Below are positions 15,916 to 33,458 of a DNA stretch of 64,000 nucleotides, piece after piece. A program made the translations under genes and the position numbers. Origin of the DNA: Patescibacteria group bacterium (GTDB lineage: Bacteria; Patescibacteriota; Minisyncoccia; Portnoybacterales; UBA2143); contig JAHJSM010000001.1 of the NCBI GenBank assembly GCA_018830295.1, forward strand, positions 1,980 through 65,979, in the 5' to 3' direction. The notes below the pieces were generated by a model that saw only the letters and a list, made by a program, of their open reading frames with translations, ran no database searches and had not been told where the DNA came from. How positions within the stretch are numbered: position 1 is the stretch's first letter; every line of letters begins with the position of its first letter.

Positions 15916-16146
15916 ATGTGTTTAGCTATTCCAAGCAAGGTTGTTAAAATTGAAGGAAAATGGGCGAATGTCCAAGCGGGCGACCATCAACATCGGGTTG
16001 ATTTGAGTTTGCTTAAAAATGTAAAAGTCGGCGATTATATTTTCATCCACGACGAACTGGCAATTAACAAAATTCCCAAGACCGAAGCGAAGAAAATCCT
16101 GAAAATGATAAAAGACCATACTCATACCTGCGACCATCATCATTAA
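15916..16146 (+). CDS. hypC: Hydrogenase maturation chaperone HypC/HupF family, with a His-rich C-terminal tail
   Basis: Begins MCLAIPSKVVKI, the canonical HypC N-terminus, and ends ...DHTHTCDHHH. The tracked ORF starts 18 nt earlier at a non-conserved Met. Confidence 0.8.
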   Translation: MCLAIPSKVVKIEGKWANVQAGDHQHRVDLSLLKNVKVGDYIFIHDELAINKIPKTEAKKILKMIKDHTHTCDHHH

Positions 16147-17348
16147 TGCGCTGAACAACTAATACAGGGATCGTACGCCCTGACTAACATTGTCAACAAT
16201 TTCTCCATCTCTTCTCGCGATTTATTTTTCGTTTGTCCCAAAAGCGCCTTGGCGCTTTTTTCAATTGATGTCAAATTCTGAACCGTCGGCGTAATAATGT
16301 TGGCGTAAATAATATCGTTATCCTGACTCAAATGAACCTCATGATAAAGCCCGCCTCGCGGCGCCTCCGTAGAACCAATCCCCTTTAATGACGGATTGGA
16401 TGATTGTTTAATCGCTTCAGCGTTAATTTTCATTTCAAGCAATTTTTCAACAATTTCTATCGCTTTTTGGTGGTAATAAAGGGTCTCAATCGCTTGGGCG
16501 ATATTATTATGAAAAGGATTGGCAAAATCTATTTTTTCGCCCCTTTTAATTTTTTCGTTAACCGCCAAGCGCGCCAAAGAACCGACTAGGGTTTCTTCGC
16601 CTTTGTATTTGCTGAATTTAGCGGTTGAATATTCTCTGACTTCTTCTTCTATGTTTTTTTTGTAATCCGTAATGAGCGACTTGTCTTTCTTCTCTATATC
16701 TGTTGAAGAAACTGCAATAATATATTCCCCTTCTTGAGCGGCCAATTTCAAATCCACTTTTAATTCGGGATACTCAATCCCTTCAAAAATCTGAATTGTT
16801 TTTCGCGCCGCGTCTTCGGTCTCTTTTAATTTTTTGAGAAGAACTTTCAGAGCGGATTTGGTCGGGACTTTATGAAAACCGCCAATTGTGGTCGTAGTCG
16901 GATGAACAATTCGCCCGCCGACAATTTGAACAATTTTATCGGAAACCTCTTTCAGCGATAAAGCGTCCTTAAAAGCGGCTGGATTTTTTGGAGCCAATTC
17001 AGTCGCTCGGTCAATGCCGATATAATCAGGCAAAACCAAAAAGAAAAGATGAAGTACATGACTCTGAATCATCTGTCCGCATTGCATTAAATCGCGCAAA
17101 AGAACGGTCGTTTTGCTCGGCTTAATTCCCAAAGCGTTTTCAATCGCGTTCAAAGAAGCCAAATTATGAGCGGTCGGACAAACGCCGCAAATCCGCGGAG
17201 TAATCCACGCCATTTCTTCGGCTGTTCTGCCAACCAAGATTCCCTCAAAAAGCCGCTCTCCCTCAAAAATATTGAGTTTGACCTCGCCCGCGTCCCAATC
17301 AATATTCAAATTCCCATGCCCCTCAATTTTCGCGATAAAATTTTGCAT
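16143..17348 (-). CDS. [NiFe] hydrogenase large (alpha) subunit, group 3 (sulfhydrogenase-like)
   Basis: N-terminal RICGVCPTAH and C-terminal DPCISCSAH Ni-Fe ligand motifs. Confidence 0.9.
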   Translation of the reverse strand: MQNFIAKIEGHGNLNIDWDAGEVKLNIFEGERLFEGILVGRTAEEMAWITPRICGVCPTAHNLASLNAIENALGIKPSKTTVLLRDLMQCGQMIQSHVLHLFFLVLPDYIGIDRATELAPKNPAAFKDALSLKEVSDKIVQIVGGRIVHPTTTTIGGFHKVPTKSALKVLLKKLKETEDAARKTIQIFEGIEYPELKVDLKLAAQEGEYIIAVSSTDIEKKDKSLITDYKKNIEEEVREYSTAKFSKYKGEETLVGSLARLAVNEKIKRGEKIDFANPFHNNIAQAIETLYYHQKAIEIVEKLLEMKINAEAIKQSSNPSLKGIGSTEAPRGGLYHEVHLSQDNDIIYANIITPTVQNLTSIEKSAKALLGQTKNKSREEMEKLLTMLVRAYDPCISCSAH

Positions 17349-17441
17349 TTTTAAAAATAAGTATTCTGAAATTTATGAGCGTGTTGGGAGCCCTTTGGGC
17401 TAAAACGCGAAAAAATTTAGAATACGAAGTTTTTGTTTGTT

Positions 17442-18188
17442 TTATTCCTGATCTACTTTATTTAAGAACATACTAAAATATCTCTCAATTTCTTTTTTGT
17501 CCGTGATATTATTTAAAATTTTTAATAAAGCGTCAATATTCGCGTCCTCGCGTAAGCCAAAGCAACCATAACAGGGCGAACCGCCGTTGACGCAAACAGC
17601 CCCGCATCCGCCTTGGGTAATCGGTCCTAAACAAGGTTTCTCGTCTATAAGACGGCAAGGATTGCCCGCCTGCTTACATTCAAAACAAACCGAATAGCCG
17701 CGATAAGACGGCTTTTTCCCGCTTAATAATTCTTCCACTGTTCTGACTAATTCGCTTTCTTCAATCGGACAGCCGTGAATTAAAAAATCAACATGGATAT
17801 AGGCGCTTAATGGCAAGGCGTCAATTCCTCTCGGCTTGTATTTTTCTCCGTAAATTTTCTTGCACCATTTCTCCCTCTCGCTCTTTTCCATAATCGCCGG
17901 AATACCGCCCAGGGTGGCGCAACTTCCCAACCCAATCAAAAACTTTGATTTCTCGCGCAATGATTTAATTAAATCAATCTCTTCTTGCGTAATCGGCGCT
18001 CCTTCAATGAGCGTCACATCAAATGGCCCGTCTTCTTTCCGCTCCTGCCCCAAACGCCAGTCAACAATATCAATTCTTTTTTCCAAAACCAAAAGTTTCT
18101 CCCTTAAAGAGACGATTTTCACCTCACACCCCTCGCAATCAGTCAGGTCGTAAATAGCAACTCTTGGATTTGAATTTTTTTTAGTCAT
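17442..18188 (-). CDS. [NiFe] hydrogenase small (delta) subunit. The likely start is M47 (MTKKN...); the tracked extension overlaps the gamma-subunit gene
   Basis: DCEGCE and GSCATLGG motifs, with C-terminal Cys clusters. Confidence 0.85.
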   Translation of the reverse strand: MTKKNSNPRVAIYDLTDCEGCEVKIVSLREKLLVLEKRIDIVDWRLGQERKEDGPFDVTLIEGAPITQEEIDLIKSLREKSKFLIGLGSCATLGGIPAIMEKSEREKWCKKIYGEKYKPRGIDALPLSAYIHVDFLIHGCPIEESELVRTVEELLSGKKPSYRGYSVCFECKQAGNPCRLIDEKPCLGPITQGGCGAVCVNGGSPCYGCFGLREDANIDALLKILNNITDKKEIERYFSMFLNKVDQE

Positions 18189-19014
18189 GATTTTTATCAA
18201 TCTCGTCAAAATTAAAAACTGGACCGTCTTGGCAGACATATTTGCTCCCAGTCGCGCAGTGCTGGCACTTGCCCAACCCGCACTGCATCTTTCTTTCCAC
18301 ATTAACAAAAATTCTTCTATCGGCAATTCCCAATGGCCTCAATATTTTTTCAAGCGCCTCCATCATGGGCCCGGGGCCGCACATCGCCGCGACCGCATCA
18401 ACCGCGTTTATCTTTATATCATCAATTAATTCCGAAACCATTCCGACATATCCCTTCCAATTTTTATCCGGCTTATCAACCGTCAACAAAACCTTAATAT
18501 CTTTTTCCCATTTCTTAATCGCGTCCATCATTAATAAGTCCTTGGGCGTTCGCGCTCCGTAAATTAAATAGACATTCCCAAAATCTCCCCTGTTTTTAAT
18601 AATATACTCAATCAAAGCGGCAATGGGAGGAATGCCACATCCGCCCGTAACCATGACGACATCCTTGCCCGACATAAAATCAACGGGAAATCCATTTCCA
18701 TAAGGACCTCGCAAAAACGCTTCATCGCCTTCTTTTAATTGATGCAACTTCTCCGTCAAAACACCGGCCTTTCTAACAACCAAATCCAGATACCTTTTTT
18801 CATAAGGTGAGGAAGCCGCCCCAAAAGGCGCTTCGCCCCAGCCAAAAAGCCCAAACAAAAGAAATTGCCCCGGATTAAAAACCAGACCATTTTCATCCGC
18901 CTTAAACACACTCTTGCCTGGCTTCGGCGAGGCAAGGCGAAAACGGCTCACATTAGAAGAAAGTTTTTCTATCTTAATAATTTTAACTTTTTCTGGTTCG
19001 TAAATATTTTTCAT
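18181..19014 (-). CDS. Hydrogenase gamma subunit (FAD/NAD(P)-binding oxidoreductase with a [2Fe-2S] cluster)
   Basis: Flavin/NAD-binding fold, with CGLGKCQHC...C at the C-terminus. Confidence 0.85.
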   Translation of the reverse strand: MKNIYEPEKVKIIKIEKLSSNVSRFRLASPKPGKSVFKADENGLVFNPGQFLLFGLFGWGEAPFGAASSPYEKRYLDLVVRKAGVLTEKLHQLKEGDEAFLRGPYGNGFPVDFMSGKDVVMVTGGCGIPPIAALIEYIIKNRGDFGNVYLIYGARTPKDLLMMDAIKKWEKDIKVLLTVDKPDKNWKGYVGMVSELIDDIKINAVDAVAAMCGPGPMMEALEKILRPLGIADRRIFVNVERKMQCGLGKCQHCATGSKYVCQDGPVFNFDEIDKNHD

Positions 19015-19912
19015 AATCCTCCACTATCTCCATTAAAACGCCTGCGATTCCGATGCCGGCGGGACAGTTGTTTTTGCAATTTCCGCAGGCGACACATTGC
19101 GATTTTCCATATTCCTTGTAGGCGCGGACGAATTTGTGATAAAACCAATTGTAATACCGCTCTTTAACCGTCGGATGAAATTTATGCCCTCCGGCGATTT
19201 TTGAAAAATTAGGCAGAGTACAAGCGTCCCACTGGCGACAACGAGAACAACTCTCGCCGTCTAAATTAACTCTGTCCTCAATAGAAAAACAATGACATAA
19301 GGGACAAACATAAGTGCAAATTCCGCAACCCAAACATTTTTTCGCCAATTCGTCCCAAATTTTATGATTCGCCGACCAGGCGACCGCTTCCGCCAGCAAC
19401 TCCGAATCAAGAAGCATCTCTTTCATTGGATTTGAATCGGTTGAATATTTCTTAATAACTGGCTTGGCTATTTTTTTAATCAATTTACTTTTAATCGCCT
19501 TCTTTCCTTTTTCTGTTAAAACCAAAACCTGATATTGTTTAGAATTTATTTTTTCTAAAATAATATCCCCGCCCATTGGGACAATAACTGTATTATCAGT
19601 CAAACCGACTAAAACCGATTTTTCTCTTCTTCGCCAATAATAAAAATCTTTTCGCGGCTTCTCCATGATTTCGTCCAACTGCGTCATCGCTTCCAAATGC
19701 GCCATATTTAAACCAAAAAGCAAAACTCGCCCCTCATAATCGGGAACGCTTAACTTTTGGCTTTTCAAGTCAAAGTTAAATGTTTCTTCCTTAGGCGGAA
19801 AAAAATATTGCTTCGGAGGCAAGACGCTTTTCCGAACATCAAAAACCGCGAAGCCCTTTTTTAACTCCTTCAGCCAGTTTTTTATTTCTTTTTTTTCTAT
19901 TACTAAAGGCAT
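18983..19912 (-). CDS. Hydrogenase beta subunit (multi-cluster Fe-S protein)
   Basis: Several CxxCxxC...CP clusters (CLGCGICTYVCP, CVACGNCKNNCP). Confidence 0.85.
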   Translation of the reverse strand: MPLVIEKKEIKNWLKELKKGFAVFDVRKSVLPPKQYFFPPKEETFNFDLKSQKLSVPDYEGRVLLFGLNMAHLEAMTQLDEIMEKPRKDFYYWRRREKSVLVGLTDNTVIVPMGGDIILEKINSKQYQVLVLTEKGKKAIKSKLIKKIAKPVIKKYSTDSNPMKEMLLDSELLAEAVAWSANHKIWDELAKKCLGCGICTYVCPLCHCFSIEDRVNLDGESCSRCRQWDACTLPNFSKIAGGHKFHPTVKERYYNWFYHKFVRAYKEYGKSQCVACGNCKNNCPAGIGIAGVLMEIVEDYEKYLRTRKS

Positions 19913-20421: not shown

Positions 20422-21063
20422 CTACTTCGCAAGCGCTTTTTCAATCGCGTCTCTAAAAACGCTATACGGTTGATTACCGACAATTTGCTCGCCATTAACA
20501 AAGAAATTAGGCGTTCCGCTCACGCCATCTTCCTGCGCTTGTTCAAACCATTTTTCCACGCTCGTTTTATATTTCTCCGCGTCAAAACACAAATTAAATT
20601 CTTTCTGGTTTAATCCCAAATCAGCCGCTATTATTTTGATATCCTCCGCCGCCTTAAGTTCTGCCGCTTTTTCAAAAAGCTTCTCGTTAAATTCCGCGAA
20701 TTTGCCCTGGTCTTGCGCGCACAAAATGGCCATTCCTAATTCAAGCGGGGAAAGCAAACGGGAAATAAATTTAACCTTTCCTGTTTTAATATATTCATCC
20801 ATAATCAAGGGCAGGGTATCCCTGTGAAAATTAGCGCAATGCCCGCAAAAATGACTTGAATAATCTATGAGCGTTACTGGCGCGTCTGGGTTGCCTAAAA
20901 AAAACTCTTCGCCTAAAACAGCGTCTGTCTGCTTCTCGCCGCTTCCCAAAACAGAAGCCGCCTGCTTTGCCACATCCAACCCGTAATTCCCCGCGTACCA
21001 AACAACACCCGCCAAAAACGCGATTGCCACCACTCCGAAAATAATTGTTTTATTGTTTTGCAT
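20422..21063 (-). CDS. DsbA-family thiol:disulfide oxidoreductase (membrane-anchored)
   Basis: N-terminal TM helix and a CGHC active site. Confidence 0.8.
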   Translation of the reverse strand: MQNNKTIIFGVVAIAFLAGVVWYAGNYGLDVAKQAASVLGSGEKQTDAVLGEEFFLGNPDAPVTLIDYSSHFCGHCANFHRDTLPLIMDEYIKTGKVKFISRLLSPLELGMAILCAQDQGKFAEFNEKLFEKAAELKAAEDIKIIAADLGLNQKEFNLCFDAEKYKTSVEKWFEQAQEDGVSGTPNFFVNGEQIVGNQPYSVFRDAIEKALAK

Positions 21064-21097
21064 AAATTTAAGTTTAAAGTTTTATTTTTATTTCCCC

Positions 21098-21134
21098 CAT
21101 TTTACCACTAATCAAAAATCAACGCAAATTTTTC
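21098..21134 (-). promoter_or_regulatory. 37-bp repeat copy 1. Its reverse complement contains TTGCGT-N17-TGgTAAAAT, an extended -10 sigma70-like promoter, about 35 nt upstream of the dsbA-like start
   Basis: Identical to 22250-22286. Motif spacing was read directly. Confidence 0.5.
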
Positions 21135-21171
21135 AAAACAAAAAAACAACCCAAGCAAAAGGATTGTTTTT

Positions 21172-21555
21172 TTATTTAACGAAATCTTTTTTTAATTCCT
21201 TGGAAACGCACGGACTGCTTCTTATCAAGGCCTTCAATTCTTTAATGTCTTTGTCCGATACGGATATTCCAATAGGTTCAATTCCTGTCGCTTTAATAAG
21301 GTCATTTCCTGTCATATGAAATGACGCAATTCTTTTTTTAAATTCTTTCGTGTCTAAAGTTACAAAAGCAAATATTGTTCTACTCTCAAGGTCCCTTCCG
21401 CCATTAGATATTCTGCGATTATAAAGAGATGATATTTTTTCACTATCCTTTTTGTTTAAAATCCAAGCCGCGTATATTGTATCAGGGGTAATCTTTAAAA
21501 ATATGTATTCTTTGCCATTGTATCTAAAGACATCGCCAAAAGTTATAGTTATCAT
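21172..21555 (-). CDS. Hypothetical 127-aa protein, translationally coupled to the Panacea-domain gene; candidate toxin partner
   Basis: Its start codon lies 1 nt after the stop of the 21557-22099 gene. No recognisable family. Confidence 0.55.
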   Translation of the reverse strand: MITITFGDVFRYNGKEYIFLKITPDTIYAAWILNKKDSEKISSLYNRRISNGGRDLESRTIFAFVTLDTKEFKKRIASFHMTGNDLIKATGIEPIGISVSDKDIKELKALIRSSPCVSKELKKDFVK

Positions 21556-21556
21556 C

Positions 21557-22099
21557 TTATTTGATTAAATCCATTAGCAATTTTATTTCTTCCTTAGTAA
21601 CCTTGCAATCAGCATCATCAGCAGCGAGTATATATGGAATTTTGTCTAAAAGTTCCGTGCTATTCCATGGAGATTCTTTATGCGATTCATCCTCTATTTT
21701 TCTTGTGTTAACATTTCCAAATCTAATACATACTTTTTGAAGTATATCTAATTCGTTTTCAGAAAAATATTTTTCATCATCTTTGCTAAATTTTCTTAGC
21801 GGCAAAATTCTATGTATTTTTTGTCCTTCTAATGTTTCTATTTTTATCGTATCTGACAAAATTGCGTCATCCATATCGTCATCAACATTATCAACTAAAT
21901 TTTTTATGTTTGATGGTATTGGCCCGCGTTCTAAATGAACATAATCGTCATAAGTTACCGGCGATCCATACTGTTTTACATGCATAAAATCCAAAAAGTA
22001 GAAAAGTTTCATCAACTTAACTTTGCCCAAAAATCTAGGATTAGTATGCGCGCAAAAATACAAAAGAATAGCTTTTAATTTTGATATAGATATACGCAT
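21557..22099 (-). CDS. Panacea (DUF4065, SocA-like) antitoxin-domain protein
   Basis: KLMKLFYFLDFMHVKQYGSPVTYDDYVHLERGPIPS matches the Panacea/DUF4065 core (KLqKLlYfad...GrPit...Y.a...GPV). Confidence 0.7.
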   Translation of the reverse strand: MRISISKLKAILLYFCAHTNPRFLGKVKLMKLFYFLDFMHVKQYGSPVTYDDYVHLERGPIPSNIKNLVDNVDDDMDDAILSDTIKIETLEGQKIHRILPLRKFSKDDEKYFSENELDILQKVCIRFGNVNTRKIEDESHKESPWNSTELLDKIPYILAADDADCKVTKEEIKLLMDLIK

Positions 22100-22210
22100 T
22101 TTTATAATTTAGGCAAGACTCAAAACCACTCAAGATGATTATAACACATTAGAAACCCGCAAAAAAGGGTTCCTGACACCTTTTTCTTCCTTCTATGTTG
22201 ATTTTATTAC

Positions 22211-22237
22211 ATTATCAACATTGCCAATGTTGATAAT
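22211..22237. promoter_or_regulatory. 27-bp perfect palindrome ATTATCAACATTG-C-CAATGTTGATAAT in the leader between the promoter repeat and the Panacea gene; operator candidate
   Basis: 13-bp arms, read directly. Confidence 0.45.
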
Positions 22238-22249
22238 ACATTTATTTGA

Positions 22250-22286
22250 CATTTTACCACTAATCAAAAATCAACGCAAATTTTTG
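22250..22286 (-). promoter_or_regulatory. 37-bp repeat copy 2 (same promoter-like sequence), about 150 nt upstream of the Panacea gene
   Basis: Exact duplicate of 21098-21134. Confidence 0.5.
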
Positions 22287-22294
22287 TAAATAAA

Positions 22295-22323
22295 AAAGTG
22301 TTCAACCCTGAAGGTTGAACACT
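22295..22323 (-). terminator. Terminator hairpin GTGTTCAACC-CTGA-AGGTTGAACAC with a minus-strand T-run; a second copy lies at 30540-30566
   Basis: Perfect 10-bp stem. It lies just downstream of the 22337-23143 gene. Confidence 0.6.
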
Positions 22324-22336
22324 TTTTACTCTTCTC

Positions 22337-23143
22337 TTATTGTATTTTCCGCTTTCTCTTCCTAATCACAATCAAAACGCACAAAACTAATAAAACAATT
22401 CCTAAAATAATCAGCCATTCGCCTGAACCCAATCCCGCAATGCCGGCCAAAAGACCATTCTGATTATTTTCTTCCTCTTGGTCTAAAACTATTACTTGTT
22501 CATCGTCCTGCTTCTCGCTAACCTCATCTTTTGTTCCCAAACCCTCTCCTTCGTCTTTCCCCTCATCTTCTTTCGCGTCTTCTGAAAAAACTGGCGTTTC
22601 CGCTTTTGGCGTCTTTACCGATGGCGCAACTGGCGCGGCTGGAATTGTTGGAACTGGCGCTGGCGCCGCAATATTCACAGCCGTTTGAACTATTGAACCG
22701 CTTAAAATGTCTTGATTTTCCGCGTTAAGAACCATTGAATTACTTCCTAATCCAATCACTCCGCTACCAGATTTTTTGGCTGTAAACGAAACTGTCCCAA
22801 AAGCAACCGCCGAAGACAGCCCGCCCGGGTAGCCAGCCGTTTTAATAAGAATGCCGTTGGTATTATCAATTAAATCGTATCCCGACGCAGAAAGAGCCAT
22901 CCAGTTACTGCCAAAATTAAACGACTTTACTTCTAATAAATCAGCGGGATACTCAAGTTCTGCTTTCGTTGTATAACTTTTAACCCCTTGAGGATTGATT
23001 GACACAACCAAATCAAAATTCTCTCCTTGAACAACATTGACATTAACTGGCGAAAATGAAATAGTCGCCGCCGCAAAAACAGAACTCGCTAAAACAATTC
23101 CTCCTAAAACAGTTAGTATAGTTATTAATTTAGTTTTATTCAT
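22337..23143 (-). CDS. Cell-surface protein with a cohesin-like N-terminal domain, a Pro/Ala linker, an acidic region and a C-terminal TM anchor plus basic tail
   Basis: Signal peptide. GENFDLVVSINPQGVKSYTTKAELEYPADLLEV resembles the cohesin core. C-terminal LIILGIVLLVLCVLIVIRKRKRK. Confidence 0.6.
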   Translation of the reverse strand: MNKTKLITILTVLGGIVLASSVFAAATISFSPVNVNVVQGENFDLVVSINPQGVKSYTTKAELEYPADLLEVKSFNFGSNWMALSASGYDLIDNTNGILIKTAGYPGGLSSAVAFGTVSFTAKKSGSGVIGLGSNSMVLNAENQDILSGSIVQTAVNIAAPAPVPTIPAAPVAPSVKTPKAETPVFSEDAKEDEGKDEGEGLGTKDEVSEKQDDEQVIVLDQEEENNQNGLLAGIAGLGSGEWLIILGIVLLVLCVLIVIRKRKRKIQ

Positions 23144-23157
23144 AATTTTTTGTCAAC

Positions 23158-23781
23158 CTATCCCGTCCAATAAGTCATTAATAAATTAAAGTCAAAAATA
23201 TCAACTGTTCCATTATTATCAAAGTCAGCCACATTACCACTCCCCGTCTTTCCCCAATTAATTACTAATGAGTTAAAGTCCAAAATATCAATTTTGTCAT
23301 CTCCATTAGTATCTACTACTTGAGCCGCCGCGCTAAGCGGACTTACTGGAGAAGGAGTTGACGAACCGCCGCTGCTGCTACCGCCAGAAGACACAGGAGG
23401 CGCCGGGGGTGGAGAAACTGGACTAATAACAGATAAATCAAGATAAACAATTGGATTCGTAGCAACATTAAGAGATTCGCATTGATTAGCATCATCAGCA
23501 ATCCCAATAACTTTGAATTTTATCATTTTGCCTTCATTAACGCTACCATCAGGGACATCAATAGAATATCTACCCTGAATTGTTACTGTTGTATTAGCAA
23601 CTTCTTTATCTTCTATTTCCGCTGTGATTATAGCGCCAACCGGCGCTAAACTACCATCAACTTCAACACTACCATAAACCAAAAGAGGTATTGATGGAGG
23701 AGAAGATTGGGCTAACGCCATCACAGGTATAATCAAAGCAGAAATTGTTAAGATAGTTAATAATTGTAATTTTGTTTTCAT
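23158..23781 (-). CDS. Secreted protein with a C-terminal dockerin-like tandem Ca-binding repeat
   Basis: Signal peptide. DTNGDDKIDILDFNSLVINWG ... DFDNNGTVDIFDFNLLMTYW is a dockerin type I-like duplicated EF-hand-like segment. Confidence 0.65.
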   Translation of the reverse strand: MKTKLQLLTILTISALIIPVMALAQSSPPSIPLLVYGSVEVDGSLAPVGAIITAEIEDKEVANTTVTIQGRYSIDVPDGSVNEGKMIKFKVIGIADDANQCESLNVATNPIVYLDLSVISPVSPPPAPPVSSGGSSSGGSSTPSPVSPLSAAAQVVDTNGDDKIDILDFNSLVINWGKTGSGNVADFDNNGTVDIFDFNLLMTYWTG

Positions 23782-23823
23782 AATTATTTTCTTAATGTTA
23801 AATACACCAAGTATTTAAGCATT

Positions 23824-26800
23824 TTATTTTTCGTTAAAAGTTACAATATTTCCTGCTTGATTCATCCACAACCAATATCCTTCTCCTGAATTCATATAGT
23901 CATCAGTTCTATTTACATTATTCTCATCTGATAGTATATAACTTCCTGTTAAACTTTGAAGATAAGTTGAGCTTAACATGCGAGCTGAAGTCGATTTCAA
24001 TCCAATAAGATTCCATCCTTGTACCACTTCATAGGTAGGCGATGGATTAGAAAATTCTGGCATCTCTGTCCCTGTTACAGTCAAAACAGCAGGGTTGGTC
24101 ATGTTTACCCAATAACCTTTTCCGTCTTCCATTGTTGTTAATGTTTTTACTTGACCAGGAACATAGTTTAACCATTCACCTGAATTATAATATTTTACTA
24201 ATATAATCTTATCGTTTATACCAGTAAGCACTGTGGCTATGTCAGTATTGCTAAATATCACTGGCAATGAAATTAAGTTCCAACCAGTGTTTAATTGAAT
24301 ATCGCAAGTCCATGTTCCACCGCCATTATCAGTACAAATCGGAGTTGGTTCAACCACCGCTTCTGTAATACTAATACTTCTAGCACTTGAGCCTTCCTTG
24401 CCAACTTCATCAGTAACAATAATTCTTATTGCTACATTCTCCCCAATAGCTTCTTCTGGCACAGTCCATTGGTAAAATGGTTGTGGATTATTATCGCTTT
24501 CTATAATCGTTGTCCAATTTGTTCCGCCATCCTTGGAATAATCTAATTTTGTTTTCAAATCTCCCATTGCAGTAATATTATCCGAAGCGTCCCAAGTAAT
24601 ATTATGGACTGAACCTGCTTGCCAATTCTCGCCTCCGTTAGGATTAATTAATTCAACGGTTGGAGAAGTGCTATCAACGCTTATTCCAAAAGCATCCACA
24701 TTTTGAGATATAATATTGTTTCCCGCTAAATCAGTAACTGTTATTTTTATATAACATTTAGAACTATTAACATTGGGAACAAGCCATGAATATTCACCAT
24801 CATTTGCTGTATTTATCACAATATCGTTCCAACTGTATTTATTATCATCAGAATATTTTAGTTTAATAGGCGCATTACTAAAATTATCATCTATGGCATC
24901 CCATTTTATAAGATATTGAGAACCGCCTTGTAGTGTTGAAGGGAAAACAAGAAGCGCGACTGTCGGCGTGTTGGCATCAATAGTTTTAGCAACATCACTT
25001 CCATCAACTGCAATTGAAACATTGCCTGCTGGGTCAGTTGCTTGCGCTCCTGTTAATTGTAAGGTAGTAGTTTGATCACTTTGCCCCTCTTCTACTGTAT
25101 AAGTTGCGGTATAAATATCTCCGCCGCTAACTGCAGTCCAAGTTAAATTTCCGCCGTTATAAGTGGCAGGGGTAATAGTTAAACCAGTTTCAGTAGTAGC
25201 GACATCAACTGTAAAAGTGACAGTATCTCCGATTTTTAACCAGCCTGCGCCAGTAGCGTCTGAAGTAACTGAACTGATTACTGGGGTATTAGCGTCAATT
25301 GCTAAAGTGTTGGCAGTTACGGTCGTATAGGCGATATTTTCATTACCTGCTGTGTCTTTTAGAATTACACTCGCTGTGATTGCGCCAGAAGCTACATCAA
25401 GATTTCCTTCTACCACAAGATAAGTTGCCGTATATGTATTATCGTTATTATCAACTAACGGGGCAGTAACATCTACGCTATTTACAGTGATAACACTGGC
25501 AGTATAACCAACCGCATCGGCAGTAATAGTTAAAATGACTGTATCGCCTACTTTAGCGGTTCCCGAATTTGGACTAACTTCAATTTTACTGATAGTCGGT
25601 GCGACTGTATCTACCGTCCAAGTATAAGTTGTCGCGCTTCCTTCTGCCTGCCAATTACCTGCTTGATCTCTTCCAATTACAGAAATTATATGAGAATCCT
25701 CGCTTAATCCGGTCTCACTTATTGCGGTAGCGAACGGTGTTTCTGCTCCATAACCTCTATCGTCTAAATCATATTTATAATAAACAACTTGATCACCGCT
25801 TACACTTAAAGTAATTTCATCACTGCTAATTGGACTAACTACATCTGGTAATATTGCAATTGGCGCAGTTTCGTCAATCAGATCGCAACTTTCATTAGTA
25901 CACCAAGGTCTGTAATTAAAATTACCACTTAAACTACCGATGCCGATTCCGTTTGGATTATCCGCATGAATTGGTCCTGAGGCGCTTCCCCACCAATTTT
26001 CCGCAAAAGCTTGACTAATTGACCCATAATTAATTACTGGGGAATTAAATTTATTTCTTTGTACTAAATAATTACTAGCATAATCAGCAATTCCTATATC
26101 TTCCGCATTGTCATGAAAATAATTTAACTTTACAGTCGCGTAGTTGATAGCGCCTATGCCAGCCGTATTATTATAGAATTCATTATTCTCTATATTAACA
26201 ATCCCGCTTCCGCTATTACCTAAATAAACCCCGGAAGTTAAATCGTGTATTGTATTATTTGTTATATTAACTCCATATACACCGGGTCTATCAAATAATA
26301 CACCTCTTCCACCAACGCTTGCTCCTTGCCCTACAAGAATATTATTAGATATTACAACACTAGTTACGCCAACTGGCAAATCTATTAAAACGCCGCCTGC
26401 GGATATTGTAAATTCCGTTACAGATACATCGTTGGCTGTAATTTCTAAATTACCATTAATAGTAGTGATGTTTTTTCCAGCGCCAACTAGATTTAACGCT
26501 TTATTAATTGTTAAATTTTCAGCATAAGTCCCAGCCGAGACATTAATTGTATCTCCCTCTGTCGCCTTGTTAATCGCTTCTTGAATGTTTATAAAATCAA
26601 CATCAGTTGTCCCAAAAGTAACATCAACAATCAATATTTTATTATAATTATAAACAAAAGAAACTGAATCTTTACTAACAGTATTCCCAGCAGAATCAGT
26701 AGCCGAAAGAACTAATGCATTTCTTCCATCATTTAAGTTAGCATTAGGAATCATTGCACCTAAACAACTAACATCAATTAGTGTTCCGCCATTTATAGTG

Positions 26801-29800
26801 TAGGAACAAGCAACTGAATTAGCATCGGTCGCTGTAAATGTTAGTGGTATATCAGCGATGTAAACAGTGTCTGCCACAGGGGAAATAAAGCTACTAATAA
26901 CTGGATTCGTTTTATCCCAAACCAAAGTCATTGTATCAGAAGAACTTTTTCCTGCATTATCAACAACTGTTAAACGGATTGTATAAGTATCGTCTGGGTT
27001 TGTTCCGTTTGCTTCAATTGTTGTATCTTCTGTGCTTGGTGTTCCAAAAGTAATTGTTCCAGCTCCACTTGTGGTTACATCTGTCCATAAATAACTTGCT
27101 ACTCCAGAAACACTATCATCAACTGTTGCATCTTGAGTAAATAGAGCGTTAACAATTTTATTTGTTCCAGCCTCTACATTAGGATCAGTTAAATCAACTT
27201 TAAATGTTTGATTTGCTATTTCTTCGTCATTCCCTGCAACATCTACTGAGTAATAATACAAAGTATCAGTGCCTTCTGAAGCAGTTAATATTCCTGTATA
27301 TTCTGCATAAGTTCCAGATGTCCCCCATTTATAATAAATTTTATCACAACCGCTTGTATCATCAGCGCAAGTCAATGTTATTGTTGGTTGCGTCACATAC
27401 CAGTTGCTCGTTCCATTTGGACTTACAGGACTTGTAATAAGAGTTGTTGCCGGAACAACTGTGTCCTTGATAATTCCACCCTCGCTGTCAGCTCCTATAT
27501 TTCCAGATGTATCAGCATCTTTGAAATATAAAGTAAATGAAGCGCCTTCTACCACTCCGCTAAATTCAGCGATAGCAGACATTTTTGTGACCCCGCTTGC
27601 GCAAACTGTCCAATTAGTGTCATCAACAGAACATTGCGAATTAGTTGAATCAGTTGCAAAAGTTATTACAGTATCACTATTTACATAAGCGCCAGTCAAC
27701 GGAGCAGTTATATTTACTACTGGAGCAATCATATCTTTAGTTGCGATACTGATTCCGGCTGAACTAACATTTCCCGCCGCATCAGTTAAAGTCGCGGAAG
27801 CTGTTAAATTTCCATCAGCCAAAGCTGAAACATCTATACTGGTAATATTAATATTCTCGCTTCCATCAACACTACTTACTCCCGTTATTTCTAAGGCTTC
27901 TTTATCTTTTACTGAATAACTTACAACAGCATTTGCTTCGCCAGTACCAGTAATAGTCATTGTTGAATTAACAATATTAATATCTGTTGCTAATATAGTC
28001 GGAGCGCCCGGCGTATTCGCGTCAATAGTTTTTACAACATCAATTCCATTTATTGAACCGCCGATATTTCCAACCAAATCAGTTAATGTAACGCCTGTTA
28101 ATTGCAAAGGTGAAGTTTGGTCCAATTGATCTTCCTCAACCGTATAAGTCGCCGTATAAGTTGTGCCATCAACAGTTAACCAAATCAAAGTTCCGCCATT
28201 ATAAACAGTTGGGCTAATAACCAAACCTGTTTCTGGAATAGTAGGGGTAACTGTAAAAATAATAGTATTCCCTACTTTTAATATTCCTGCTGTTGTTGCA
28301 TTAGAAATTACCGATGTTATAGCGGGAGCAAATGTATCAATATCATAACTAGCAGAACTTGTAGGTCCAACTGGAGCATTTCCGGCTACATCAGTCCAGT
28401 TAGTGCCAACGGTGATAACATTTTCATTATCATCAATATCTATTGCAGGAGTAAGGGTAGCTGTATAGATTTTTGCATCTCCATTGTCAATAGTAAAATT
28501 AGATAATGTCCCGTTTTCAATAACCGTCACATCATCGACAGTAAATCCAGTTGGTACTTCTGAAAATGCAAAGGTTACTGCGGCGGTTTCTCCGACTTTT
28601 AGAGCTGTGTCATTAAGAGTAATTGTAACTGTTGGTTCTAATGTATCAACATCAAATATTCCTGTGCTATCAGCATCCATCACATTCCCAGGTGTAGCTA
28701 AATCTACCGCGTCAGACACAATAATTATTGCCGTTGCTTCTTCGTTCGCATCTGAGAGAGTGAATATTTCTGTCCAAGTATTTCCAGACCAAGCGCCATC
28801 ACTTTGAGTTATTATAACGCCTATTATTCCCGTAAAGCTAAAAGTCGGGGCTGTAGAATTCATCGCCTCGCTAAATACAACAGTTATCGTAACATCTCCC
28901 ACTTTTGCCAAACTTGGGTTTGCTGTCACGCTAACAATAGTTGGCTTTGCTCCATCACTTACATCTTGATTTTCTACTTGAAGCAAGGCATTCTTTGAAT
29001 TATCCTCAAATGCGCCAACTGCAATTTCTAAATCTTCAGAATCGTCTGTAATCGCTGATGTTCCTAAATCTGAACCAAAAGTCAATACCACTACATCATC
29101 TTTGAATTCATTAATAAAAAACCCTGTCGGATTAATCCCTTTTAAAGTTATATTTTCAAGAGGATCTATGTAACCCCCAATGTCGTCTTCGCTAAATGTT
29201 AATTCAACGGTGGTTGAATTTGTTAAAACAGCTGTTTCCAATATTGGAGCAATACCATCAAAAGTAATAGGGCTTGCCACTGGAGCAGAAAGTCCAGCTA
29301 AATCTTTAACATCCCCAACGTAACCTACATTAGGAGTTTCTCCTGTCCCGAAATTAGTTCCCAACGTTAAAGTGATAACCCCATTTAATTCACTAGTGCC
29401 TGTTATTGTATAGCCCTCTACACTAAAATCAGCTATTGCATCTGTAGTTCCATCCAAATCCTCAGAAAATGCCAATTCAATAGTATTTATCGTTTTAGTT
29501 CTGGTTGACCAAAGTACAGGGTTAGCCTCATCTGTAGAAGTTTGAGAAAAACTTGCCAATGGATTACCAACCATATCTGCTCCACTTCCAGCAGTATAAA
29601 CAACAACTTTCGCTTCCGTTCCAGTTGCTTTATTTTCCACAACAATATCAAAAGTATTATCGTTTACTATGCCTCCAGTATCTATGGTAATTACAGGAGC
29701 TGAACCACATATAAAATCGCCTGCAGAAAAAGTTGAGTCATCTACTGCTTCACTAAATACAATAGTAGCCATTTCCACATTTCCATCACCATTGGTATCT

Positions 29801-30351
29801 TTAGTGGTGATTGATAAAATTGTCGGCGCTGTCACATCAACAGTTGTTTTTGTATCAGTGTTAAATGTATAACCCTCATTTACATCTCTTGTCGCAACAC
29901 CCCATGTATATTCCGTGTCTACTGTAGGCGTTGGAGATGTAGCATTAAAAGCAACATTAACGCTATTGTCAGCAGTTAAAATACTATCGCTAAATACATC
30001 TGTCATGCAAACAGCTTGTAAACTAGAAGATTCTGAATCATTTGTCCACCCCGCAGGGCAAGAAATAGTGCTTGTGTCTATTAAAAAACCAGATCCACTT
30101 TCAACGCTTATAGTGATTTTATACACAGAATCCGCTCCATTATTCGTCACTGTAAATCCATAAGCATCAGTAGAACCGCCAGCAACAAATTCCGGCGCAG
30201 TAGTCGCTGTCGCCGTATGTTCCGCCAAAACAAAATTATAAACAAAAAAACCGCCCATGATTAAGACGGCAAACAAAATTAAAAAAGGCGACCACCTAAG
30301 CCCCCCCCCAGAAACTTTTTCCCTCCAACGAGAAATATGAGAATTATTCAT
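23824..30351 (-). CDS. Giant (2175 aa) surface adhesin-like protein with Ig-like (Big) repeats and a right-handed beta-helix segment
   Basis: N-terminal TM/signal region. A ~105-aa repeat unit ending in TIDANTP occurs three times. The NxxNxI.NN repeats (NITNNTIHD...NIENNEFYNN) are typical of parallel beta-helix. Confidence 0.85.
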   Translation of the reverse strand: MNNSHISRWREKVSGGGLRWSPFLILFAVLIMGGFFVYNFVLAEHTATATTAPEFVAGGSTDAYGFTVTNNGADSVYKITISVESGSGFLIDTSTISCPAGWTNDSESSSLQAVCMTDVFSDSILTADNSVNVAFNATSPTPTVDTEYTWGVATRDVNEGYTFNTDTKTTVDVTAPTILSITTKDTNGDGNVEMATIVFSEAVDDSTFSAGDFICGSAPVITIDTGGIVNDNTFDIVVENKATGTEAKVVVYTAGSGADMVGNPLASFSQTSTDEANPVLWSTRTKTINTIELAFSEDLDGTTDAIADFSVEGYTITGTSELNGVITLTLGTNFGTGETPNVGYVGDVKDLAGLSAPVASPITFDGIAPILETAVLTNSTTVELTFSEDDIGGYIDPLENITLKGINPTGFFINEFKDDVVVLTFGSDLGTSAITDDSEDLEIAVGAFEDNSKNALLQVENQDVSDGAKPTIVSVTANPSLAKVGDVTITVVFSEAMNSTAPTFSFTGIIGVIITQSDGAWSGNTWTEIFTLSDANEEATAIIIVSDAVDLATPGNVMDADSTGIFDVDTLEPTVTITLNDTALKVGETAAVTFAFSEVPTGFTVDDVTVIENGTLSNFTIDNGDAKIYTATLTPAIDIDDNENVITVGTNWTDVAGNAPVGPTSSASYDIDTFAPAITSVISNATTAGILKVGNTIIFTVTPTIPETGLVISPTVYNGGTLIWLTVDGTTYTATYTVEEDQLDQTSPLQLTGVTLTDLVGNIGGSINGIDVVKTIDANTPGAPTILATDINIVNSTMTITGTGEANAVVSYSVKDKEALEITGVSSVDGSENINITSIDVSALADGNLTASATLTDAAGNVSSAGISIATKDMIAPVVNITAPLTGAYVNSDTVITFATDSTNSQCSVDDTNWTVCASGVTKMSAIAEFSGVVEGASFTLYFKDADTSGNIGADSEGGIIKDTVVPATTLITSPVSPNGTSNWYVTQPTITLTCADDTSGCDKIYYKWGTSGTYAEYTGILTASEGTDTLYYYSVDVAGNDEEIANQTFKVDLTDPNVEAGTNKIVNALFTQDATVDDSVSGVASYLWTDVTTSGAGTITFGTPSTEDTTIEANGTNPDDTYTIRLTVVDNAGKSSSDTMTLVWDKTNPVISSFISPVADTVYIADIPLTFTATDANSVACSYTINGGTLIDVSCLGAMIPNANLNDGRNALVLSATDSAGNTVSKDSVSFVYNYNKILIVDVTFGTTDVDFINIQEAINKATEGDTINVSAGTYAENLTINKALNLVGAGKNITTINGNLEITANDVSVTEFTISAGGVLIDLPVGVTSVVISNNILVGQGASVGGRGVLFDRPGVYGVNITNNTIHDLTSGVYLGNSGSGIVNIENNEFYNNTAGIGAINYATVKLNYFHDNAEDIGIADYASNYLVQRNKFNSPVINYGSISQAFAENWWGSASGPIHADNPNGIGIGSLSGNFNYRPWCTNESCDLIDETAPIAILPDVVSPISSDEITLSVSGDQVVYYKYDLDDRGYGAETPFATAISETGLSEDSHIISVIGRDQAGNWQAEGSATTYTWTVDTVAPTISKIEVSPNSGTAKVGDTVILTITADAVGYTASVITVNSVDVTAPLVDNNDNTYTATYLVVEGNLDVASGAITASVILKDTAGNENIAYTTVTANTLAIDANTPVISSVTSDATGAGWLKIGDTVTFTVDVATTETGLTITPATYNGGNLTWTAVSGGDIYTATYTVEEGQSDQTTTLQLTGAQATDPAGNVSIAVDGSDVAKTIDANTPTVALLVFPSTLQGGSQYLIKWDAIDDNFSNAPIKLKYSDDNKYSWNDIVINTANDGEYSWLVPNVNSSKCYIKITVTDLAGNNIISQNVDAFGISVDSTSPTVELINPNGGENWQAGSVHNITWDASDNITAMGDLKTKLDYSKDGGTNWTTIIESDNNPQPFYQWTVPEEAIGENVAIRIIVTDEVGKEGSSARSISITEAVVEPTPICTDNGGGTWTCDIQLNTGWNLISLPVIFSNTDIATVLTGINDKIILVKYYNSGEWLNYVPGQVKTLTTMEDGKGYWVNMTNPAVLTVTGTEMPEFSNPSPTYEVVQGWNLIGLKSTSARMLSSTYLQSLTGSYILSDENNVNRTDDYMNSGEGYWLWMNQAGNIVTFNEK

Positions 30352-30539
30352 GATGTCTTTTTTGCAAACGCCTGACCAAGTAGAAAATAATTTTTCACTC
30401 GCGCCGAAAACGATTACAAAATTTTATTTATTAAATTTTAATTTTTACAAAAAACCAAAAAGTAAAATTCTAACTTAATTACATCCTATATTTTCAATCC
30501 TAAAATGTCAAGTGTTTTGGGCGCGATTGCTTGCTGAAA

Positions 30540-30566
30540 AGTGTTCAACCCTGAAGGTTGAACACC
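30540..30566 (-). terminator. Second copy of the GTGTTCAACC...GGTTGAACAC hairpin (terminator candidate)
   Basis: Same stem as 22295-22323, downstream of the 30567-31781 gene. Confidence 0.5.
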
Positions 30567-31781
30567 TTATTTCTCCAACTGTCTAATATCAACAACTGGA
30601 ATGTTATTAATTTTTTCCTTAATCCTATTGATAGTGGCAATATAAAATTTTATTTTAGGATAGGTTTCAATAAATTTTTTATACTTATTCTTATTGAATT
30701 TCTCTGAATTTACTTTAACTTCGTAAGCTGTCTCTTCCTCAACCACAAAATCAACTTCGTGTTTCTGGATAGTTCGCCAAAATTTTATCTCTGAAAAATC
30801 ATACTTTTCCAACAACTCTCTATACAAAGCATTTTCTAAGAGCTGTCCTTTGTCTTCGCGCAAATCATAAGAATCTAAATTTTTTAATAAAAAATTTCTC
30901 AATCCCAAATCCAAAAAATAAACTTTTGGCATTTTAGTAATTTCCTTTCTTAAATTTCCGTAAAAAGGACTAACTAATCTGATATGAAATGACCTCTCCA
31001 TAATAGACAAATAGTCCTCTACCGTCGAACGGGATATTTTTAAGGTTGAGGCAAGTTCCGAACTATTAACCAAATTGCCAGTTTGAGAAGCCAAAATTCT
31101 CATTAAATTATAAAACACTTCTTCCTGTTTAATGTTGGCCTCAAAAATATCTTTTTTAATGTAAGAATGAACCAAGTCCCCTAAAACTTCTTTTTTCTGG
31201 GCTCTATCCGATAAAACAACTCTTGGATATCCGCCATAAGTTAAATACTCGCGGTAATATAAATCAACTTTCTCTTTTTCAGATAAACTAATTTTGTTAA
31301 AATTCTTTTTTGCCAAATCCTCTTTATTTTTAAATTTTAAAAACTCTCTAAAGGACAAAGGCAATAATCTAAAAATCTTTTTGCGGCCAACTAAAGAATC
31401 TTTAAATCTGCGGTCTATGTAAAAAGCAGATGAGCCAGTCGCGATAATTTTTATCTTTCCCTTATATTCATCATAAAAATATTTTAAGAAATTAGTCGGG
31501 TCATCAAGATATTGAACTTCATCAACTAAAACATAAGTTTTTTGTTTCAAATCAAAAGGAAAGATTTTAAAAAGATTTTTGGGCGTTTTTTTTAACAAAG
31601 AAAGATATTCATAATCCTCTAAGTTGAGAAAATGAACAGCATTGCCTTTTTCTTGAATAAAATCCTCTATTTGACGCAAAATAGTCGTCTTGCCAGATTG
31701 CCTCGGACCAATAATCAGCGCTATTTCGTTGTTGTCAATTTCTTTTTTAATTTTAATAGTCAAATCCCTTATAATACTCAT
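30567..31781 (-). CDS. AAA-family ATPase (AAA_14 plus DUF4143 architecture)
   Basis: Walker A GPRQSGKTT and Walker B LVDEVQ; 404 aa. Confidence 0.85.
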   Translation of the reverse strand: MSIIRDLTIKIKKEIDNNEIALIIGPRQSGKTTILRQIEDFIQEKGNAVHFLNLEDYEYLSLLKKTPKNLFKIFPFDLKQKTYVLVDEVQYLDDPTNFLKYFYDEYKGKIKIIATGSSAFYIDRRFKDSLVGRKKIFRLLPLSFREFLKFKNKEDLAKKNFNKISLSEKEKVDLYYREYLTYGGYPRVVLSDRAQKKEVLGDLVHSYIKKDIFEANIKQEEVFYNLMRILASQTGNLVNSSELASTLKISRSTVEDYLSIMERSFHIRLVSPFYGNLRKEITKMPKVYFLDLGLRNFLLKNLDSYDLREDKGQLLENALYRELLEKYDFSEIKFWRTIQKHEVDFVVEEETAYEVKVNSEKFNKNKYKKFIETYPKIKFYIATINRIKEKINNIPVVDIRQLEK

Positions 31782-31910
31782 AAAAAATACTTTAATTTAA
31801 TTATTAACCTCATATTATCAGATATTATGTTCTTGTCAAGAGCATAATATCCACAAATTTTTAGACGCTATTTAGGGATTGGTATAAATAATGCGCCTTG
31901 CGCGGTTTTC

Positions 31911-32741
31911 CTATTTCAAATCTTTTATTTTGTTTCTTAAAATATCTTTAATATTTTTGCCCAATTTTTTTACAAACGCTATGTCGCTAATAAAATTTTC
32001 TAAATCCAAGGTAATGCTTTTATAGTCAATTTTTTCCACGATTGCCAGAAGTTTCTTCTTTAAATCATCAATTGTCTCCACCTCTTCAATACAATCTAAA
32101 TTAGGACTTATTCCCTGCTCTAAATACCACATCAAATCAAAATAGTCGCGACCCTTAACGCTAATTAACTTTTTTCCTTTTTTATCTGTCTTTCCCCATT
32201 TTCTGCGCAAAACGGCCTTGATTTTGGTCGCCATTAATGTCGGCAAATCAAAAGTTTTTATTAAAATAGATTTATTGTTTTTAAACAACGGCTTAATTTC
32301 AGTTTTGTATTTACGGCAAAAATTAAAATTCTTGAATATTTCTATTTTTAAATGTAAAAAATCAGATTCAGCGCCGCTTGATAATCCAAAATCTTTTAGA
32401 ATCGGAAATTTTAAGTATATTCTAAACTTCTGCGGTTTAATTGAAACAGAAAAATCTGTTTTTTTACAGAAAAAGTTTTTTAAATCATCAGCCAATTCTT
32501 CTATTGATACTTTTTTTTCAATATCAACAAAGTCAAGATCCTCGGAGAGTCGTGGCAGAGAATAGCATTGGGAAAGGCAAGAACCGCCATAGAACACCAA
32601 TTTATTATATTTTTCATTAGAATATATGTAGTCAAGCGCGAGAACCTGAAAATATTCCTTTAATAAGTTTCTTTTATATAAGTTTGATTTTTCAAAATTT
32701 TTTTTGATTATATCTTTGATAATTGTTTCTGTTTCGTTCAT
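31911..32741 (-). CDS. Nucleotidyltransferase AbiEii/AbiGii toxin family (DUF1814)
   Basis: LVFYGGSCLSQCYSLPRLSEDLDF matches the AbiEii GG(T)..(R)(F)SED(I/L)D signature. Overlaps the upstream gene by 4 nt. Confidence 0.75.
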   Translation of the reverse strand: MNETETIIKDIIKKNFEKSNLYKRNLLKEYFQVLALDYIYSNEKYNKLVFYGGSCLSQCYSLPRLSEDLDFVDIEKKVSIEELADDLKNFFCKKTDFSVSIKPQKFRIYLKFPILKDFGLSSGAESDFLHLKIEIFKNFNFCRKYKTEIKPLFKNNKSILIKTFDLPTLMATKIKAVLRRKWGKTDKKGKKLISVKGRDYFDLMWYLEQGISPNLDCIEEVETIDDLKKKLLAIVEKIDYKSITLDLENFISDIAFVKKLGKNIKDILRNKIKDLK

Positions 32742-33406
32742 ATTCTTGATTTAAATAAATAATTAAATATGTCAGTCATTTTTTTACTGCTTTCTAATTT
32801 GACATATTTTTCCAATTCTTTAATATCTTTTTTTCTAAAATCGCCAAGATTAAGCCGCAGTTCTTTAACTGCCGTTTTATGTCGCAAAATATTTTTTCTT
32901 AAATACAAAAAATCAAATAATGCTTTCGCTAAACTGGCTTTTTTAATTAAGTACTCGCCTTTTCTATGAAGTTCAAAACCGATAAATAAATTTTCTTTAA
33001 TGTGATGATAATCAAAAAGTCCCAGTTTATTGGAAAACTTTTTTGTCTTTTTTTCGGTGATTAATGTGAAGCTGTTTGAGGTCTCGCTTAAAATATTATT
33101 TTTCCCAAGCGCGTATTCAAGGCTGATATAAGCGGGCTCATATAAAATATTAGCAATAAATTCCAAATATTCATTCATGCCATTGCTTTTTTCAATAAAT
33201 TCCAAATATTTTTTGGAAACATAAACTCCCTTTTTCAAAGAAATTACTTCGCCTTTTTTTGACAACCTGGACAATAATATTCTTAGATATTTTTTATTTT
33301 CTTCAATAACGGTTAAATTTTCAATACGAAAATAAGGCAAATTTTTTATCGCGCTTTTAATTTTTTCTGAACGAAAACCTTTGGATTTTTTATTTATTTT
33401 TACCAT
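32738..33406 (-). CDS. AbiEi-like antitoxin / transcriptional regulator partner
   Basis: The position and 4-nt overlap with AbiEii are typical of abiEi-abiEii operons; 222 aa with the N-terminal wHTH-like region of this class. Confidence 0.6.
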   Translation of the reverse strand: MVKINKKSKGFRSEKIKSAIKNLPYFRIENLTVIEENKKYLRILLSRLSKKGEVISLKKGVYVSKKYLEFIEKSNGMNEYLEFIANILYEPAYISLEYALGKNNILSETSNSFTLITEKKTKKFSNKLGLFDYHHIKENLFIGFELHRKGEYLIKKASLAKALFDFLYLRKNILRHKTAVKELRLNLGDFRKKDIKELEKYVKLESSKKMTDIFNYLFKSRI

Positions 33407-33458
33407 AAAACTTGTTTCTTATAATATACATATATTGTATATTATGAGAAACAGATTG

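Follow-up and report, generated by a model that had tools for sequence, protein, structure and literature searches.

A probable, horizontally acquired Panacea toxin–antitoxin cassette next to a dsbA-like gene in a Patescibacteria chromosome

Here we analysed a 64,000-nucleotide stretch of the chromosome of a Patescibacteria group bacterium (assembly GCA_018830295.1, contig JAHJSM010000001.1, positions 1,980 to 65,979 of the forward strand; hereafter the window), concentrating on two coupled genes, panA and a panT candidate, which lie upstream of a dsbA-like gene. We conclude that this locus is probably a horizontally acquired type II toxin–antitoxin (TA) cassette of the PanAT kind, about 1.0–1.1 kb in length. 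The two genes are as follows:

21557–22099, minus strand: panA, encoding a 180-aa standalone Panacea/DUF4065 antitoxin with a PF13274 match
21172–21555, minus strand: panT candidate, encoding a 127-aa protein whose family has no name and whose predicted fold is MazF/Kid/CcdB-like

The coupled pair recurs well beyond the window. In all members of the partner family with readable contigs, the partner lies directly downstream of a Panacea gene of 178–180 aa. The pair was found in nine different contexts (the window with L001 and L004; L002; L003; L011–L013; L014 and L015; L016 and L017; L018 and L019; L023–L025; and L026), always in the order PanA then partner, with a gap of −4 to +7 nt. Between contexts, identity is 48–72% for PanA and 25–44% for the partner, and the flanking genes are unrelated across the nine. 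PanA and its partner thus behave like a two-gene module that is conserved and mobile. An earlier reading of this DNA from its letters alone (the sequence-only reading) had proposed such a pair, had stated that the partner start lies 1 nt past the upstream stop, and had named missing conservation with Panacea genes as a point that would count against it. The sequence and the list of open reading frames (ORFs) confirmed the spacing, with the partner ATG 1 nt beyond the panA stop, and the nine contexts establish the conservation. The in silico features used to recognise PanAT systems, which include gene spacing of at most 100 nt (Kurata et al. 2022, PMC8832971), are also present, since one partner carries PF13274 and the genes in the window are 1 nt apart.

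The Panacea assignment of the sequence-only reading held when the protein was searched against PF13274 (SocA_Panacea), which matched residues 29–145 of the 180 at E 2.1e-19 with 71 bits against a cut-off of 25.7. Beyond Panacea, the Pfam scan found no second domain in PanA and no helix-turn-helix (HTH) or other DNA-binding domain; the last 35 residues (146–180) form an acidic C-terminal tail. Searches of PADLOC, NCBIfam and PDB sequences returned nothing for PanA, and PHROGs returned only unannotated families. The N-terminus MRISISKLKAILLYF is kept across the nine contexts, indicating that the 180-aa start is the right one.

The 127-aa partner had no match in Pfam, PADLOC, NCBIfam or PDB sequences and only noise-level matches in PHROGs, consistent with the earlier statement that it belongs to no recognisable sequence family. 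A word-index search found three relatives only. A profile search of 1.84 billion representatives recovered 303 clusters (counted at 50% identity) at E≤1e-3 and 199 at E≤1e-10. Nearly all members are single-domain proteins of about 125–135 aa, and the sources that carry organism names are exclusively metagenome-assembled genomes of Patescibacteria or Saccharimonadales. The family profile found nothing among PDB sequences, and no PF01845 (CcdB) match was detected by Pfam in the partner or its family. Panacea-paired toxins would thereby gain a Patescibacteria family of about 300 clusters for which there is no Pfam model.

A structure prediction of the 127-aa protein was more informative. With an alignment of 143 sequences, AlphaFold2 returned a confident model (pLDDT 88.8, pTM 0.80), which replaced an unusable one (pLDDT 42.7) built from an earlier four-sequence alignment. 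The confidently predicted fold is that of the MazF/Kid/CcdB toxins, an SH3-like barrel plus a C-terminal helix, with a 16-residue helix inserted after β3. Because the model is confident while sequence and profile comparisons with MazF and CcdB are negative, the partner is, as modelled, a structure-only (cryptic) member of the MazF/CcdB fold class, and this membership of the family is visible only by structure prediction. The earlier idea of a new toxin therefore stands at the sequence level only, as the predicted fold is a very common one and not new. Foldseek searches of BFVD with the model gave nothing significant, the top hit being a phage 'Endoribonuclease' (probability 0.84, E 0.15).

Several results weigh against a toxin of this fold class. 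Among 143 aligned family members none had a meaningful Pfam match, and 0/143 matched PF02452. In hhalign comparisons, the family scored a probability of 0.25% against five MazF/Kid/ChpBK sequences and 0.5% against CcdB; these control sequences were verified against Pfam, where the MazF-family ones match PF02452. Foldseek against the PDB returned nothing significant for the model, with CcdB at rank 2 (probability 0.30). The β1–β2 loop of the model has only two residues and no conserved Arg, and the fairly conserved His78 position of the family is Ser in the window protein. In addition, some PanA-linked MazF candidates were non-toxic in Escherichia coli (Flavobacterium xanthum; PMC8832971).

The conserved polar residues of the partner family are D8, S/T38, T69 (97%), R75 (85%), H78 (69%) and D103 (99%), of which T69, R75 and H78 are candidate active-site residues of the putative toxin. 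In MazF, the catalytic Arg sits in the β1–β2 loop and a Thr follows β3 (R29 and T52 in E. coli MazF). T69 was placed opposite MazF T52/T53 by hhalign, without significance, and R75 is an alternative candidate for the missing loop Arg. We put the chances at about even that the candidate toxin acts as a translation-blocking RNase, most probably an endoribonuclease with sequence specificity; this activity is favoured because most characterised proteins of the MazF/CcdB fold are endoribonucleases. That the partner is instead a CcdB-like gyrase poison, in which case PanA would protect DNA gyrase, seems unlikely. Its short β1–β2 hairpin is closer to CcdB than to MazF, and the best hhalign stretch, itself non-significant, pairs partner AAWILNKKDSEKI with CcdB SARLLSDKVSREL. 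However, CcdB uses a Trp-Gly-Ile C-terminal end on GyrA, which the family C-terminus (LKxLVxxIxx) lacks, and the arrangement in the family, where Arg and His come after a near-invariant Thr, is more usual for an RNase site. For the favoured RNase, PanA would neutralise the toxin through direct binding, via either the Panacea core or the acidic C-terminal tail; standalone Panacea proteins have been reported to neutralise toxins directly (Ernits et al. 2023).

The pairing of PanA with a MazF-fold toxin is of a known kind, since PemK is among the described PanT domains, clusters T5 and T6 are MazF-family, and a T6 pair from Pseudomonas moraviensis has been validated (Kurata et al. 2022, PMC8832971). 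Like the T5 and T6 systems, the window pair is chromosomal and mobile, with a Panacea antitoxin lacking an N-terminal domain encoded first and a coupled small toxin of MazF-like fold second. Unlike T5, which HHpred recognises as MazF at >99% (PMC8832971), the partner family could not be linked to MazF or CcdB by sequence or profile comparison, and it differs from both clusters in its two-residue β1–β2 loop and the 16-residue helix after β3. In the portion of Dataset S1 of Kurata et al. 2022 that was accessible, there was no Patescibacteria entry of the window type, and the Saccharibacteria entries were only of HTH-PanA with T14. Compared with MazEF and Kid–Kis (PemIK), the antitoxin is Panacea and not MazE or Kis (AbrB-like), and the toxin has neither a PF02452 match nor a catalytic Arg loop. 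What sets the pair apart from CcdAB is the absence of a PF01845 match, of CcdA and of conserved gyrase-binding residues at the C-terminus. The locus also differs from the type III systems ToxIN, CptIN and AbiQ in having a protein antitoxin gene and no tandem RNA repeat array upstream; a type III system was rejected as a candidate after no tandem repeats were found in 20900–22450 besides an 8-nt run present twice.

We then turned to the DNA on either side of the pair, where the sequence-only reading had described a duplicated promoter. The elements concerned are:

20422–21063, minus strand: dsbA-like thioredoxin-fold gene (PF13462, 3.6e-33; PF01323, 6.6e-14), putatively served by copy 1
21098–21145, minus strand: copy 1, the dsbA-proximal copy of the putative promoter (TTGCGT at 21122–21127, TGGTAAAAT at 21099–21107)
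22250–22297, minus strand: copy 2, the upstream copy of the putative dsbA promoter (TTGCGT at 22274–22279, TGGTAAAAT at 22251–22259) plus a T-tract linker
22293–22327, no strand assigned: terminator of the cohesin-like gene, a perfect 15-bp hairpin whose homologue in L022 is the terminator preceding dsbA

Two copies of the repeat are real, but the exact match is 36 bp (21098–21133 and 22250–22285) and not 37 as claimed, base 37 differing between the copies (C versus G). At 94% identity the similarity reaches 48 nt (21098–21145 and 22250–22297), through the spacer into the T-tract. In the window the repeat occurs only twice at up to three mismatches, and it occurs in none of 100 shuffles; 45/48 matches at the cassette spacing were reached in 0/300 dinucleotide shuffles (maximum 32). 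On the minus strand the repeat reads TTGCGT, 14 nt, then TGGTAAAAT, which leaves 17 nt between TTGCGT and TAAAAT. The earlier rendering, TTGCGT-N17-TGgTAAAAT, was thus right about a promoter-like motif and slightly miscounted the spacer, while the distances given with it were accurate, the dsbA ATG lying 35 nt beyond copy 1 and the PanA ATG 151 nt beyond copy 2. Relative to sigma-70 promoters, TTGCGT agrees at 3/6 positions and TAAAAT at 5/6, with an upstream TG and a 17-nt spacer. Comparison of six loci shows conserved −35 and extended −10 hexamers around a variable spacer, a pattern in favour of a promoter function. Two sister strains, L001 (GCA_018900215.1) and L004 (Ga0180732_1001694), show the same layout in independent assemblies, arguing that it is not an assembly artefact.

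Cassette-free relatives allowed the site to be compared with and without the cassette. A word-index search identified DsbA relatives of 63–69% identity at L020, L021 and L022, all with no cassette and with a single promoter upstream of dsbA, of the form TTGC(G/A)T-N14-TG(G/A)TAA(A/G)AT, in one copy per locus. DsbA pattern scans of genomes and metagenomes yielded one close relative only, L004. In alignment A3, the L022 terminator and promoter match the upstream terminator and copy 2 of the window, and the sequence past the L022 −10 element matches the copy 1 flank, the 5′ untranslated region (UTR) and dsbA, as insertion with target duplication predicts. The right flank of copy 1 (5′ UTR and dsbA) is likewise homologous to the empty loci L020–L022. 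The combination of flanking direct repeats with single-copy empty sites in relatives is that of an insertion with target-site duplication, and cassette GC is low (about 0.29–0.34 against 0.40–0.47 in the flanks). Collectively, sequence comparison supports the earlier suggestion that the cassette was inserted with duplication of a promoter; it lies between the dsbA promoter and dsbA. It is highly improbable that the repeats are instead a common regulatory element, a promoter family whose members flank the pair by chance. The motif is promoter-like in architecture and is kept upstream of dsbA in relatives, which speaks for a promoter family. Yet the window holds just two copies even with a degenerate pattern (two other one-mismatch matches are unrelated sequences), identity runs past the hexamers through the spacer into the T-tract, joining the flank upstream of copy 2 to the one downstream of copy 1 rebuilds the single-copy L022 site, and cassette-free sites exist in relatives.

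Two points weigh against the insertion as reconstructed. A simple sigma-70 scan does not call the repeat, as its −35 matches at only 3/6 positions. No genome was found with the cohesin-like gene beside dsbA and no cassette; the adjacency of these two genes, which the sequence-only reading had proposed to look for in cassette-free genomes, is not seen in L020–L022, where the gene directly upstream of dsbA encodes an amidohydrolase.

The two promoter copies appear to have changed since insertion. In L004 the ancestral spacer, identical to that of L022, is found in the dsbA-proximal copy and a derived spacer in the upstream one, whereas the window and L001 have the derived form in both copies. 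Linker variant ATTTACAAAAA belongs to the upstream copy of the window but to the downstream copy of L004. Because linker and spacer variants are swapped between strains, the two copies would have exchanged sequence through recombination or gene conversion. In the mechanism that we propose, the downstream copy keeps dsbA expressed despite the cassette terminator, and transcription from the upstream copy enters the cassette leader. The locus would thus be a natural example of a TA cassette with a terminator sitting between a promoter and its gene, the gene being unsilenced because the promoter was duplicated.

Comparison with L002, whose cassette encodes a PanA 93% and a toxin 79–80% identical to those of the window, delimits the unit that moved. 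The non-coding elements around the two genes are:

22138–22146, minus strand: extended −10 promoter element of the cassette, TGTTATAAT, 39 nt upstream of the panA ATG, read from the sequence
21136–21177, minus strand: cassette terminator and 3′ end, a hairpin then a T-run after the toxin stop (inverted repeat with 17-nt arms, 88% complementary)
22170–22249, minus strand: lineage-specific leader, about 80 nt between copy 2 and the core cassette
22151–22174, minus strand: weak terminator-like hairpin at the leader/−10 boundary (8 pairs, 4 of them G-C, with a T-poor tail)

Homology between the window and L002 starts about 66 nt before the panA ATG (about 22165), continues through the terminator hairpin and then gives way to divergence, so the core mobile unit comprises a promoter, panA, panT and a terminator. 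TGTTATAAT lies inside the sole non-coding block upstream of panA that is shared with L002. The cassette carries this extended −10 element of its own nearer to panA, a feature that the sequence-only reading did not mention. When conserved cassette-end motifs were sought across the nine contexts, the window–L002 homology was the only non-coding homology found. On the plus strand, a strong promoter-like site, TTGATA-16-TATAAT at 22081–22108 (11/12 matches), lies antisense over the panA start codon and is kept in L002; it may drive antisense transcription across the leader, or the match may have arisen by chance in AT-rich sequence.

The leader itself is restricted to the window lineage, being absent from L002 and the other cassette contexts. 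It has no Rfam match, and its overall fold is not unusual (z-score −1.54). As previously noted, it carries a perfect 27-bp palindrome at 22211–22237, with 13-nt arms around one central base. That this is an autoregulatory operator of the PanAT pair, as also proposed, is quite improbable. The palindrome is perfect, unique in the window and placed between a promoter and panA, with a third half-site, ATCAACAT, at 22195–22202. However, it is missing upstream of L002, despite a PanA of such high identity, and in six other contexts, and it lies about 65–90 nt upstream of the cassette's own −10 and not over it. PanA, moreover, has no domain with which to bind DNA, and Panacea has been argued probably not to be the operon autoregulator (Ernits et al. 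2023). In viral contigs, no exact copy of the palindrome was found.

Flanking duplications are not confined to the window. L016 has a 35-nt direct repeat at 2314–2348 and 3463–3497 with 30/35 matches (86%; 0/300 shuffles), and L026 a 25-nt repeat at 2298–2322 and 3397–3421 with 21/25 matches (84%; 1 of 200–300 shuffles). Cassette-flanking duplications of 25–48 nt are therefore present in three of the nine contexts, and the six others have no flanking direct repeat at the cassette spacing. The L016 and L026 repeats are unrelated in sequence, and Rfam and tRNA scans found nothing around the former. The duplicated segment is the promoter in the window, includes the start of a small downstream ORF in L016, and in L026 is the overlap of two convergent gene ends, the 3′ end of each gene being intact. 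A duplication of 36–48 bp is far longer than those typically made by transposases, and the cassette encodes no recombinase gene. We considered the repeats as attL/attR of a site-specific integration and rejected this for the cassettes in general, as those in L016 and L026 are unrelated and no integrase gene is nearby. The insertion mechanism may itself generate long duplications; alternatively, these may be the only insertions to persist where genes are tightly packed. Such packing is illustrated by L020 (2620–2650) and L021 (2510–2545), where the final codons of the amidohydrolase gene contain the −35 of the dsbA promoter. Long duplications in three of nine contexts offer a hint on how cassettes move in genomes with few mobile-element genes. 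A bolder proposal, which we rate as rather unlikely, is that recombinase-less TA modules enter through an undescribed duplication-generating route or trans-acting enzyme, that the toxin has a non-canonical activity or target, or both; a different target is conceivable given a MazF-like fold without the MazF catalytic loop. If true, duplications of 25–48 bp would preserve the function of both neighbouring genes. Mobile elements adjoin some cassettes: an IS1595-family transposase gene lies directly downstream and convergent in L003 (4313–5194) and L014 (3420–4271), and a diversity-generating retroelement (DGR; RVT_1 with bAvd) adjoins the cassette in L023 (3495–5217).

The window cassette lies within a larger variable block. 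About 12.3 kb (21064–33458) between the amidohydrolase gene (33459–34751) and dsbA is absent from L020–L022, where the two genes are adjacent, which identifies the site as a variable island. Besides PanAT, the island holds an AbiEi/AbiEii module, an AAA_14/DUF4143 ATPase (30567–31781), a 2175-aa surface protein (23824–30351) and two cohesin/dockerin-like genes. In L002 (1592–7290), the PanAT pair, 80% identical to that of the window, lies upstream of a homologue of this giant surface protein, and the two surface proteins share a similar N-terminus, MN.S..SRWREKVSGGGLRW. This placement suggests that the cassette has moved within the same island in related organisms.

Such an island raises the question of phage defence. 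The pair may be chiefly an abortive-infection module, in which PanA senses an infection cue and frees the toxin, and not a classical addiction or stress TA system; we consider this possible but doubtful. A sensory role has been proposed for Panacea, and TA networks have been linked to antiphage systems (Ernits et al. 2023). The company of the AbiE module and the AAA_14/DUF4143 ATPase, together with the DGR or IS1595 elements that adjoin the cassette in other genomes, fits a defensive role. On the other hand, no PADLOC model matches PanA or its partner, viral contigs yielded no relative of the toxin, and no trigger for PanA sensing is known. A defensive role is, in any case, compatible with the PanAT assignment and does not exclude it.

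The AbiE module (31911–33406, minus strand) comprises a 276-aa AbiEii nucleotidyltransferase toxin (PF08843, E 2.4e-21) preceded by a weak AbiEi-like antitoxin of 222 aa (NF047376, E 3e-9, below the cut-off); judged by these sequence matches, it is a second TA or abortive-infection module. Downstream of dsbA, a [NiFe]-hydrogenase-like four-gene operon (16143–19912, minus strand) carries Fer4_22, NAD_binding_1/DHODB_Fe-S_bind, Oxidored_q6 and NiFeSe_Hases domains; it is syntenic in L001, and L020 and L021 share this hydrogenase-operon synteny downstream of dsbA. Finally, a 47-nt direct repeat (77%) at 23167–23213 and 23254–23300, with a spacing of 87 nt, lies near the 3′ end of a 207-aa gene and probably encodes repeated dockerin-like calcium-binding segments.

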